From the IMG/VR virus record IMGVR_UViG_3300025674_000129, positions 1 to 38,456 of that record: a DNA stretch of 38,456 bases; one strand, written 5' to 3'. Of the stretch, positions 13,193-16,768 are shown piece after piece. The translations under genes were made by a program, and so were the position numbers. This stretch comes from a virus (taxonomy: Duplodnaviria > Caudoviricetes). Position 1 is the stretch's first letter, and each line of letters starts with the position of its first letter. The notes under the pieces are model-generated. The model made no database searches. It was not told the origin of the DNA and saw nothing but the letters and a program-made list of their open reading frames with translations.

Positions 13193-13201
13193 GTGAATCC
13201 A

Positions 13202-13316
13202 TAGAACGTTCTACAGATAGAACGTTCTTCTGTAGAACGTTAATCCTAAAACGATAACCTGAAGCCCCGTAGTACCCCGGAGGGGCGAATGAACGTTCAA
13301 CCTGTAGAACGTTCTA
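13202..13316. repeat. cluster 1 of TAGAACGTTCTA palindromic repeats (5 copies)
   Basis: copies at 13202, 13218, 13233, 13289 and 13305; 15-16 bp spacing within groups. Confidence 0.9.
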
Positions 13317-13330
13317 TGTCACCTTTGGTG

Positions 13331-13367: not shown

Positions 13368-13639
13368 CAAAAAAGTACGCCAATTTTTTTAGAAATTTTT
13401 TTTTGGCTCTGGGACTCCTAGCCTTTGTGCCACACAAAAAAGGGGTTCTTCGTTGTGCGTTATGCTATCTGTCAGAAAAAAGGGGTAATCGTTTGAGCGT
13501 TTCACTATGTATATATGGTGACGCACTCGCACGCATTAGGGGGGGTGGGGGTGTGCGTGATTTGCGCGATCCTCTCAAAAAAAGACCGCCTTACTCTAAC
13601 CGTTGTTATTCGTTGTGCGTCTTACGTTAACCGTTAGCT

Positions 13640-14089
13640 TTAGTGCAGCGGTTGGTCGTCTGCCGCTGATGCTAATCGTTTCTCGATCTCGGCTGCTATC
13701 TCGTCCGGTGATCGTTCTACCTTTTCGACTACCTGTTTGTCGGAGAATAGTGCGACAGTCCGACCCAGCAGTTGAGCCGCAGCCAGTTGAGCATTAGTTG
13801 GTTCGTCGCCTGTCGTTGGATCGATGCCATCCTCAACCCATCGCCGCAGCTTACCCACGACCAGTTCTCTGTCCGAGACCGCCTTTCGTTGAATCGCTCT
13901 CTCCTTTAGTGCAATAAGTGCATCCACCCTTGCGGAAACCTTGGGGTCTTTCATCAGCCGCGACCCCTCACTGTGAACCGTGGAGTCCTTGCCATTGCTG
14001 TTGAAAGCTTCCCGATAGGCATCCGCCTGACTGCTACCCCCAGCCACTAACTGAGCGAATCGTTCCTGTTTCGGTGTGAGCTTATCCAT
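13640..14089 (-). CDS. terS: terminase small subunit
   Basis: LTPKQERFAQ....G.SQADAYR.A HTH-type N-terminus; upstream of terL on the same strand. Confidence 0.8.
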   Translation of the reverse strand: MDKLTPKQERFAQLVAGGSSQADAYREAFNSNGKDSTVHSEGSRLMKDPKVSARVDALIALKERAIQRKAVSDRELVVGKLRRWVEDGIDPTTGDEPTNAQLAAAQLLGRTVALFSDKQVVEKVERSPDEIAAEIEKRLASAADDQPLH

Positions 14090-14249
14090 TGCGCCCTTTT
14101 TCCCGCCTATATAGATGCAGTCATTCTATCCGCCCCACGTCACCCCACCAGCCCATGACCTGCGACACAGGGCGACCGACCTATGACCAACAGGAATATA
14201 ACCCTAGCGCACATTTCATTGTTCGTTGGTCGTGATATGTGAGATCTTC

Positions 14250-14610
14250 TTGACATCGGCGACGGGGAGCCGGGGCGCAGCGCGCTCGAATCCCGCCACC
14301 TCCTCACGGTGAAGCTCGACCCCTACGGGGCAACGCTGCCGAGGTGACCCTCCCAGACTGGGCAAGTTCTGGTGCTAGATAGGACAACGTCGGCCCGTAC
14401 CGCAACGGGCAGCGCCGACAGACTCCAAGCCTAGCCGCGCCGCGCAGCGTGGAGCCTAAACTGATGGTGAAGCCTAGGGTTGAACGGCTAGTGAAGTGAG
14501 TCCCGAAACGGGCAGCACTGCTAGACCGGCCCGACAGCCTGACATCAGCCAACGAACTCCGAACCGCGCAGGATTTATCAGAGCGCACTGGCAATTGGGC
14601 TAGTGCTTTC
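14250..14610 (+). ncRNA. candidate large structured non-coding RNA / early leader
   Basis: GC-rich, no credible ORF, many nested helices (see findings); strand inferred from the downstream operon and G-U pairs. Confidence 0.5.
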
Positions 14611-14637
14611 GAGTAAGTCACAACCGGAGACCGTGCT

Positions 14638-14694
14638 ATGGAAACTCAAGATCACAATGATTTCGAGGACTTCATGCGAGAGCAAAACCTTTAA
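14638..14694 (+). CDS. 18-aa acidic peptide (not in the ORF track)
   Basis: GGAG 8 nt upstream of ATG; METQDHNDFEDFMREQNL*. Confidence 0.4.
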   Translation: METQDHNDFEDFMREQNL

Positions 14695-14725
14695 CCCAAC
14701 CCCCCACGCAAATAGGAGAAAACCA

Positions 14726-14935
14726 ATGCGTAACACTTACAACCACACCCCGCTGGAGCAGGCCCGAATGGACGTGCTGCAAGCGATCTCAGACATGGCA
14801 GAAGAGGATGTGTACCACAACCACCATGCCGAGACCGAGGGCTTCAACGCCTCCAAGCGCAAGCACCTTGCGAAGATGTACTACAAGCTCGCGGATCAGT
14901 GGGATCTCGAACCCGCTGCCGTCTTGGAAATATAG
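14726..14935 (+). CDS. hypothetical early protein
   Basis: AGGAG RBS then MRNTYNHTPL, 69 aa. Confidence 0.65.
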   Translation: MRNTYNHTPLEQARMDVLQAISDMAEEDVYHNHHAETEGFNASKRKHLAKMYYKLADQWDLEPAAVLEI

Positions 14936-15020: not shown

Positions 15021-15959
15021 ATGCGCGATGTATATCAGGAAATCACCGACAGAATCGTGGCTCAGATGGAGTCTGGCGACAGCAATTGGATCAACCCGAT
15101 GGCAGGCTCTGGCCTTGGCGGAGGCTGGCCTACAAACGCCACCACCGGCAACCGATACAACGGTATCAACGTGATGCTGCTGATGGGCCTCACGGTATTC
15201 AATGGCAAAGAACATGTACCCGCCGCCAGCCAACAATGGGCGACATTCAAGCAATGGGAGTCCAAGGGCTGCCGAGTCGTGAGTGGCAAGCGCAGCGGCA
15301 ATATGATCGTCTTTTTCAAGAAGCTGGAAGTGAAGGATCGCAAAGACCCTACCGGCGAAACCAAAATACATATTCCATATCTCAAGGCATCCACTGTCTT
15401 TTCTGCCGAGCAGGTCGAGGGCGAGTATGCCGAGCAGTTCAAGGTCGAGCGCAAGCCGCTGACTGAGGTCGAGCAGATCGCAGCCGTCAACGACTGGGTG
15501 ACCAACTACGTCAATGGCACCGATCTGACAATCGACTACAACGAGACAGGCCGTGCGTTCTACCGCCCAATCACCGACTCGATCCACATGCCACCCGCCG
15601 ATGGATTCGAGGCTACCGCAACGTCAACCGCTACCGAGTGCTTCCACTCGACCCAGCTACACGAGTTGACTCACGCCACTGGTAACAAGGCGCGTCTGAA
15701 CCGACTCGACATCAAGAACAACGACGGCTACGCCTTCGAGGAGTTGGTGGCTGAACTGGGGGCCGCGTTCCAATGCCTGACGCTGGGAGTCAGCGCCGAG
15801 CCACGCGAGGATCACGCCAAGTACCTCAACAATTGGATCGCCGCGCTGAAGAATGACAAGCGTCTGATCTACAAGGCCGCCAAGCTTGCACAGCAGGCTG
15901 TCGATCACATCGCGGAGCACCAACCCTCCGCAGAACAATCAACTGAAGAGGCCGCGTAA
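15021..15959 (+). CDS. ardC: ArdC-family antirestriction / ssDNA-binding protein with zincin-like domain
   Basis: YQEITD.I, Y.GIN...L, W.TF.QW, AFY.P..D.I..P, HELTH.TG, YAFEELVAELGAAF, HA.YL..W motifs. Confidence 0.9.
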   Translation: MRDVYQEITDRIVAQMESGDSNWINPMAGSGLGGGWPTNATTGNRYNGINVMLLMGLTVFNGKEHVPAASQQWATFKQWESKGCRVVSGKRSGNMIVFFKKLEVKDRKDPTGETKIHIPYLKASTVFSAEQVEGEYAEQFKVERKPLTEVEQIAAVNDWVTNYVNGTDLTIDYNETGRAFYRPITDSIHMPPADGFEATATSTATECFHSTQLHELTHATGNKARLNRLDIKNNDGYAFEELVAELGAAFQCLTLGVSAEPREDHAKYLNNWIAALKNDKRLIYKAAKLAQQAVDHIAEHQPSAEQSTEEAA

Positions 15960-15981
15960 GCGGCCCGAGGGCATCGAAATG
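15947..15981 (+). repeat. 35-bp gene-junction repeat, copy 1
   Basis: AGAGGCCGCGTAAGCGGCCCGAGGGCATCGAAATG; 30/35 identical to 16353-16387. Confidence 0.8.
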
Positions 15982-16365
15982 AAAGTACATGTATTCCAAT
16001 TCAACCTGACAGACATGGAACGAGTCGAGCTAGAGCACCTTGGCTGGGAAGCCACGGATCGCATCAGCCAGTGGGGTGAAAAGCGCCTGCTTCAGATCGC
16101 TGGCGACGAGGCAGTGGCAGAGTTCGCCGCCGCGAACATCGACGAGTACGAGTTGGTCGTAACCGTCGAAATGCCAGACACCGACGAATGGACTGCGCTG
16201 GAGTTGGCCTACGGTGAGATGAATCACTGGGCTAACCCAGACAACATCACCCGTCACCGGATGTGCGCCAGCATGTCTGTCGGTGACATCTGCGAGATCA
16301 ACGGGCAACTGTTTGTCTGCGCCACGTTTGGATTCGATAAGTTAAATCTAGGAGAGGCCGCATAA
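15979..16365 (+). CDS. YodL-like domain protein
   Basis: start MKVHVFQ after an RBS; C-terminal SMSVGDI.....F.C..FGF resembles the YodL signature. Confidence 0.55.
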   Translation: MKVHVFQFNLTDMERVELEHLGWEATDRISQWGEKRLLQIAGDEAVAEFAAANIDEYELVVTVEMPDTDEWTALELAYGEMNHWANPDNITRHRMCASMSVGDICEINGQLFVCATFGFDKLNLGEAA

Positions 16366-16387
16366 GCGGCCCAAGGGGATCAACATG
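16353..16387 (+). repeat. 35-bp gene-junction repeat, copy 2
   Basis: AGAGGCCGCATAAGCGGCCCAAGGGGATCAACATG. Confidence 0.8.
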
Positions 16388-16768
16388 TTAGTGACACTGA
16401 ACGATTCGCCAATCTTTGACGGGATCTGGCACTCACGAAACGGCGATGCTCACGTCATCCCTGAGGTCTGGGTGGTATGCCCGAAGTGCAGCGGTGAGGG
16501 CACCACCGGCAACCCTGCCTTCGACGGCATGAGCCTGTCAGAGATAGACGATTGTGACCGAGACGATTTCATGGATGGCTACATGTCAGGCCGATACGAC
16601 GTGGCCTGCTCCCGATGCAAAGGGCGCACCACCGTCAGAGGGTATGACCTGTCGCAGCTAACGCCAGCACTGCTCGATGAGTACTGGGCTGACGCACGGG
16701 AGATGGAAGAACAACGAGCCGCTGACTGGCGGACACATCAAGCAGAGATGGGGATAAGAGCATGGTAG
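16385..16768 (+). CDS. DnaJ-type zinc-finger protein
   Basis: CPKCSGEG and CSRCKG motifs. Confidence 0.65.
   Translation: MLVTLNDSPIFDGIWHSRNGDAHVIPEVWVVCPKCSGEGTTGNPAFDGMSLSEIDDCDRDDFMDGYMSGRYDVACSRCKGRTTVRGYDLSQLTPALLDEYWADAREMEEQRAADWRTHQAEMGIRAW

Follow-up and report, generated by a model that had tools for sequence, protein, structure and literature searches.

What is encoded by the 361 nt at the head of this phage's early operon, and what might the product do? The window (the whole stretch of DNA analysed, 38,456 nt) is a 38-kb tailed-phage fragment with a CheckV completeness figure of 67%, and contains genes for terS, terL, portal, capsid, primase-helicase, and Sak. The nearest relatives of its TerL are from DSL-LC04 (60%) and Pelagibacter phage HTVC027P (55%). 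Near-identical DNA is present in 20 aquatic runs, seven of which are flagged as a possible source, and no cultured phage gave a DNA match to the window at useful E-values. The region lies between a divergent terS and the early operon, which it heads and which includes an ArdC-like gene. An earlier note, made from the letters of the window, proposed an undescribed structured early RNA here, and this proposal is backed by covariation, promoter position, and the balance of G-U over A-C cells. Judged by its homologues, the region is a real, conserved, covarying structured-RNA gene of an uncatalogued family. The features around it are listed by window position:

13640 to 14089, minus strand: terminase small subunit (terS; phrog_51, PF03592), divergent from the RNA
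14219 to 14248, plus strand: likely sigma-70-type early promoter (-35-like 14219-24, -10-like 14243-48), placed by positional homology
about 14256 to 14612, plus strand: structured RNA gene, with predicted 5′ and 3′ ends
14638 to 14694, plus strand: conserved 18-aa acidic ORF, the first gene after the RNA
14726 to 14935, plus strand: 69-aa ORF without a Pfam match, missing from L005 and L008
14934 to 14997, plus strand: type II hammerhead ribozyme (Rfam RF02276, 41.9 bits), predicted to cut after 14956
15021 to 15959, plus strand: ArdC-like anti-restriction gene (phrog_7245; PF08401, PF18818)

The core of the hammerhead is intact and its score exceeds the gathering score of 37. The 18-aa acidic ORF is a possible DNA-mimic-type peptide, and L012 and L019 carry a 46-aa acidic version of it. 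The region of the 69-aa ORF (14690-14933) is an indel among close relatives, and contigs of run X12 break at either end of this ORF. At two loci (L292:1165-1314 and L365:3169-3333) the RNA is followed by a different kind of first gene, an ORF of 49-54 aa that is rich in arginine/lysine, lacks a Pfam match, and could encode an RNA-binding peptide. The window also contains a 28-nt inverted repeat (93%) made up of palindromic 11-mers between terS and terL (13200-13318). Around terS there are direct repeats (13433-13508; 13606-13627 and 14219-14240) that feature runs of A/G and the motif TCGT and are possibly packaging-start or regulator sites. A 40-nt element that includes a short palindrome occurs twice in intergenic DNA between early genes (15947-15986 and 16353-16392).

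All of the helical arms drawn in the earlier note are found in the window where it placed them. Taken as a whole, the 361 nt gains nothing in folding over its dinucleotide shuffles (z +0.49 on the plus strand, -1.11 on the minus strand); when six sub-domains were folded separately, three gave z -2.2 to -3.3 and the other three did not. The earlier note could not match the region to tRNA, tmRNA, RNase P, or intron cores; Rfam 15 has no match inside the region at E<=10 and ARAGORN returned nothing. Given the z of +0.49, the lack of an Rfam match inside the region, and the empty ARAGORN result, the evidence for an RNA rests on homologues.

These were gathered through relatives of TerS and ArdC and by motif scans with a strict pattern for the 5′ pseudoknot (pk1), which has 81 distinct matches. 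In 49/81, the two bases just before the pattern are complementary to the end of stem 1 (CG/CG 33, UG/CA 10, CA/UG 3, GG/CC 2, AG/CU 1); of these four bases, the search pattern leaves three free and restricts the other to C or U. The remaining 32 matches are mostly unrelated coding-like DNA, and at least four of them (L294, L303, L296, L325), excluded from the member counts, resemble true members with the end pair broken. Counted by the first 330 nt there are 50 members, five of which are cut off by contig ends.

Two alignments were built, A1 from 22 members with the full layout of the window (identity minimum 58%, mean 72%; six clusters at 88%) and A2 from 21 long arms. Both sides of a pair changed together in 16/33 pairs of A1 (94.5% of cells paired) and 17/26 pairs of A2 (92.8%); neither count is reached in any of 500 shuffles, and sliding the register drops pairing to 20-45%, in controls that ignore relatedness and with structures drawn from the window. 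For this reason two further results carry weight. RNAalifold, an independent prediction, has compensatory change in 29 of its 60 predicted pairs, and the long arm is closed by 12 different complementary hexamer pairs among 21 sequences. A measure of further pair types was not above shuffles (65/500 and 480/500). Chance pairing in GC-rich non-coding DNA would agree with the whole-region z, but is scarcely credible against those hexamer pairs and compensatory change far above the shuffled and slid controls.

G-U cells outnumber A-C cells 29 to 4, which favors an RNA made from the plus strand. The earlier note had also seen no RBS-supported ORF, and no reading frame is conserved: in 16 of the 22 aligned members stops interrupt every one of the six frames, and length differences among them are non-triplet.

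The RNA appears to be built from the following parts, all on the plus strand:

14257 to 14296, plus strand: pk1, a 5′ H-type pseudoknot (stem 1 14257-60/14269-72; stem 2 14263-67/14291-95)
14297 to 14346, plus strand: hairpin domain carrying the tandem U-G/G-U motif with its 2-nt bulge (14309-14/14336-39) and, at 14317-33, GGGCA module 1
14348 to 14372, plus strand: pk2, a second H-type pseudoknot (14348-50/14360-62 and 14353-58/14366-72)
14374 to 14435, plus strand: domain closed by 14374-78/14431-35, containing GGGCA module 2 (14396-14412)
14436 to 14460, plus strand: variable hairpin (14436-14451) and invariant A-rich linker (14456-60), from the homologue alignment
14461 to 14553, plus strand: long arm (14461-14548) that contains GGGCA module 3 (14499-14515) besides two wobble/bulge motifs, then an invariant 4-nt linker
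14580 to 14610, plus strand: end hairpin, fully paired in 7/7 distinct variants, the likely 3′ border

The outer pairs of pk1 stem 1 covary. Stem 2 is complementary and invariant, without covariation, in 24/24 members in a scan that left it free, so its support is conservation; a relaxed scan for stem-2 covariation returned 31 loci, comprising the 24 members (all GGG/CCC) and 7 unrelated ones. Both stems of pk2 covary (16 distinct variants). The helix 14374-78/14431-35 is paired in 110/110 cells, with two of five pairs compensatory, and the outer helix of the long arm is 100% paired, with five of six compensatory. The long arm is missing from L005, L018, and L374. Model R1 matches the hairpin domain as a second hit (E 0.0075), and GNRA/UNCG-type loops are present in the sequences.

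Homologues support most of the helices first drawn from the window: CACCUC/GAGGUG, CCAGA/UCUGG, GUCGGC/GCCGAC, the 14436-14451 hairpin, the end hairpin, and the CUGAUG/CAUCAG long arm with its inner helices. The proposed GGGCGC/GCGCUC hairpin exists in the window (14273-87) but is an optional insert in the pk1 linker, found in six distinct members and absent from most. An alternative CUAGCCG/CGGCUAG pairing was not kept (91/130 cells paired versus 110/110 for the helix 14374-78/14431-35), and that helix and the two pseudoknots had been missed.

The RNA is predicted to begin at an early promoter. A -10 hexamer with at least 4/6 matches lies 4-10 nt before pk1 in 28/42 member upstream regions versus 2/31 of the other pattern matches, a result seen in 0/1000 shuffles, and TAnnnT in member upstream regions peaks 7-9 nt upstream of pk1. 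The window's own -10 match is weak (3/6), and a separate promoter prediction on the window found none. Because -10-like hexamers sit at this distance in members, we infer a transcription start 1-2 nt before pk1.

The 3′ border appears to take more than one form. A hammerhead core lies directly 3′ of the last domain, ahead of any gene, in 10/50 members, and also directly follows the last domain in three long forms of the RNA (described below); three of the abutting sites, one of them in a long form, score as Hammerhead_3, below the gathering score. The earlier suggestion that a downstream hammerhead releases the RNA fits these relatives; the window's own ribozyme sits behind two small ORFs. Since the 18-aa and 69-aa ORFs separate it from the RNA, the end hairpin is the nearer 3′ border in the window, and may be a processing site or weak terminator. 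L494 has a long-form head joined to a window-type end hairpin at a position where its relatives have a hammerhead, so either kind of border can stand in for the other.

These ends bear on two alternatives. A single-stranded DNA structure acting in genome entry or packaging, raised in the earlier note, would suit a position adjoining terS, and hairpins can form in single-stranded DNA; the start at a promoter, hammerhead ends in relatives, GNRA/UNCG-type loops, and the G-U excess on one strand make it highly improbable. A leader that only stabilizes, in which pk1 protects the first mRNA at its 5′ end and everything else is a tolerated insertion, would explain why the 5′ end is paired within 1-2 nt of the predicted start, and the window's two ORFs do remain attached up to the hammerhead. 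However, an abutting hammerhead would sever the RNA from the mRNA (10/50 members), and the strong covariation of the body indicates that it is under selection, so we consider this reading quite unlikely.

Two small motifs recur within the RNA. The tandem U-G/G-U plus 2-nt bulge motif brings GUGAAG three times into the window RNA (0/1000 shuffles reach three), and an internal loop with the 3′ strand GGGCA occurs four times, three of them within modules (4/1000 shuffles reach four). The module is defined loosely, because a strict detector scored just one of the window's three. Several pk1 members (L018, L374, L302, L308, L328, L365) have no recognizable module, so it is not required in all members. 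The opposite extreme is found in long forms of about 730-780 nt with about 10-12 GGCAG modules:

L022, 2604 to 3379, minus strand: long form
L470, 1021 to 1751, minus strand: long form
L493, 1411 to 2141, minus strand: long form

The long forms lack pk1 and span from promoter-like sequence to a type III-like hammerhead; those in L022 and L470 adjoin terS and match no Rfam family. GGCAG is counted 13 times in L022 and 11 times in L470, versus shuffle means of 1.6 and 1.8, although one L022 count overlaps another and not all counts are full modules. A 45-nt module hairpin occurs, among the long forms, in L022 only. Covariation in 26/234 predicted pairs is weak with so few (three) sequences. Model R1, built without the long forms, matches their modules at E 5e-4 to 0.17, which is weak but specific. 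An intermediate form, L494, has about 330 nt before the first gene and 4-5 modules. A module scan of viral contigs gave 19 loci, made up of seven already known as members or a long form, one new long form, and 11 others, five of which were inspected and appear unrelated.

The slot occupied by the RNA is mosaic among relatives. There were 23 close TerS loci, three of which were dropped for too little upstream DNA. Of the 20 scored, 11 have a pk1 RNA and one has a long form. In three the slot is taken by another, short RNA that a hammerhead closes, and the remaining five are without a long RNA (a short hairpin in one, nothing comparable in four). Two further long forms were located by motif, beyond the 20. 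L003, with a TerS 97% identical to that of the window, matches the window on either side of a swapped middle.

Upstream of terS in L013, L014, and L015 there is a third, short structured RNA with about 120 nt before its hammerhead, and the gene behind this hammerhead resembles the PAPS-reductase-like gene of L374. pk1 itself heads unlike bodies of 150-450 nt (L298, L330, L317, L358; L291, L297; L302, L308, L355, L328, L340, L365).

pk1 is found beside terS, endolysin, or other genes, and is single-copy in 5/5 near-complete records. The first genes downstream include ArdC-like, PAPS-reductase-like, ATPase, and unknown families, and this lack of a constant downstream gene argues against a gene-specific cis regulator. 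The exact pk1 pattern has 13 matches in genome contigs, one of which is a true member, on a 2.2-kb MAG contig. R1 was not found in 151 genomes of one phylum, in a search without a positive control, and gave no match in the examined stretches of DSL-LC04, 023Pt_psg01, and MinM2. Two metatranscriptome contig sets had no match to the RNA, which carries no weight for or against expression.

The modular uncatalogued family occupies the first-transcribed slot of aquatic phages, and its most likely role is that of a decoy. We tentatively propose, at somewhat less than even confidence, that it acts as a free multivalent decoy that would titrate a putative RNA-binding protein of the host within minutes of the start of infection. 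Host RNA polymerase would start 1-2 nt before pk1, pk1 would bury the 5′ end against decay, and a hammerhead or the end hairpin would free or bound the 3′ end. Each GGGCA module would be a putative binding site, and the target may be a host defense or regulatory protein. In its favor, module copy number changes as in the titrating RNAs CsrB and pseudo-ToxI, and among related phages domains are exchanged, the number of modules differs, and the RNA may be missing altogether. Against it, the module could instead provide a docking contact within the folding RNA, and no ribozyme abuts the RNA in the window. The functions of pk1 and of the body may be distinct.

The head of the RNA also suggests a cis antiterminator like HK022 put, in which the nascent pk1 and first hairpin bind host RNA polymerase and allow read-through of the early operon. 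The RNA would begin at +1 of the predicted promoter, much as putL lies just downstream of its own (PMC9378689), there is one pk1 copy per near-complete record, and pk1 is near-invariant over unlike bodies and contexts, as if a conserved host machine binds it. According to the same paper, put works untethered to the transcript, so hammerhead cleavage is compatible with antitermination. However, put has two stem-loops in about 70 nt and the phage RNA has pseudoknots in 150-780 nt, the long forms have no pk1, 5/20 relatives have no long RNA in the slot, and module amplification is left unexplained. This alternative is unlikely.

An RNA-only architecture like GOLLD, ROOL, and OLE, with modules and A-rich linkers as tertiary or intermolecular contacts in a compact or multimeric particle, would make use of the two pseudoknots, the invariant A-rich linkers, and the repeated internal loops. 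Phage-borne ornate RNAs form A-minor-stabilized multimers (10.1101/2024.12.08.627333). Here the domains are freely swapped, lost, and multiplied, unlike a fixed cage, there is no Rfam match to GOLLD, ROOL, or OLE, and no tRNA island; we regard such an architecture as unlikely.

A new-class aptamer or ribozyme, such as a sponge for an immune signaling nucleotide, could explain the invariant pk1 core and its conserved unpaired nucleotides. Without a riboswitch or ribozyme match in Rfam, an expression platform, or a constant downstream gene, it is very improbable.

Known families were searched more widely. Rfam, run on 30 further loci (20, plus 10 at E<=1), returned hammerheads and one sub-threshold miRNA match, outside the RNA only; hammerheads aside, no tmRNA, RNase P, group I/II, GOLLD, ROOL, OLE, riboswitch, or ribozyme model matched. 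A tmRNA, including a two-piece one, was rejected since ARAGORN found none and no frame is conserved; a T-arm-like stretch is made up of the optional hairpin and pk1 stem 2. Pairings or invariant bases needed for an HDV-like ribozyme and for group I P4-P6 are not kept in homologues. Kink-turns have conserved tandem G-A/A-G pairs; here tandem U-G/G-U is kept instead, A, C, or G can occupy the partner position, and the bulge is AA, CC, or CA. The sarcin-ricin loop has a GAGA tetraloop on a bulged-G motif, and a mimic of it was rejected because module loops vary in length and sequence. A type III antitoxin mimic (pseudo-ToxI) was rejected by sequence, with no tandem unit in the region and no Rfam match. 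The T7 A1-A2 interval (L466:150-240) has a superficial likeness to pk1 in a forced alignment, and pk1 stem 1 is not kept.

Full-text literature searches for the pk1 motif and searches by topic found no description of the motif or the RNA family. Fremin et al. 2023 (PMC10690425) derived 8,495 predicted motifs, 29-151 nt in length, from IMG/VR, and single domains of the RNA may already be present, unnamed, in that set or in Weinberg et al. 2017 (PMC5737381).

One genomic slot gives a natural series, from no RNA through 0-3 modules to about a dozen, which makes the titration model directly testable. The family may reveal a host protein or defense system that RNA is not yet known to counter. To our knowledge, a function has been established for few phage non-coding RNAs, and RNA-based counter-defense amounts to a handful of cases. 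Even without a decoy role, the family adds a new class of large covarying RNA, in which two pseudoknots are combined with a repeated loop motif that is also new. A broader idea, which we think doubtful but worth stating, is that the first-transcribed slot is an exchangeable anti-defense RNA cassette: a capped scaffold with up to a dozen copies of a new protein-binding loop that would be freed by a hammerhead and swapped like small anti-defense genes.

The protein-titrating sRNAs CsrB, RsmY, and RsmZ contain many copies of one small motif, a GGA in hairpin loops that binds CsrA. The phage RNA likewise has multiple motif copies (three in the window; about 10-12 in L022, L470, and L493). It is unlike them in that its motif is an internal loop with GGGCA or GGCAG, it has no Rfam match, and it is phage-encoded.

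Pseudo-ToxI of phage PhiTE is a precedent for repeat expansion in a phage decoy RNA (PMC3475682): in both, a unit of a phage non-coding RNA is expanded in copy number and a decoy logic is proposed. The window RNA differs in having modules inside a branched fold, with no tandem near-identical repeats, Rfam ToxI match, or recognized host counterpart.

Like GOLLD, ROOL, and OLE (10.1101/2024.12.08.627333), it is a large covarying phage-borne RNA with pseudoknots; unlike them, it matches none of their models, is smaller, has no tRNA island, sits at an early promoter, and swaps and multiplies its domains.

It is already known that hammerheads cut prophage operons, also next to ardA (PMC3088659), and the window's type II hammerhead ahead of an anti-restriction gene fits this pattern. 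In the passages of that paper examined, no upstream structured RNA to be released by such a ribozyme is described.

Like putL and putR of HK022, the phage RNA is a structured RNA that would open an early transcript made by host polymerase, here from a predicted promoter. Compared with the put sites, which have two stem-loops in about 70 nt (PMC9378689), it is longer (150-780 nt), contains pseudoknots, and is both accessory and mosaic.
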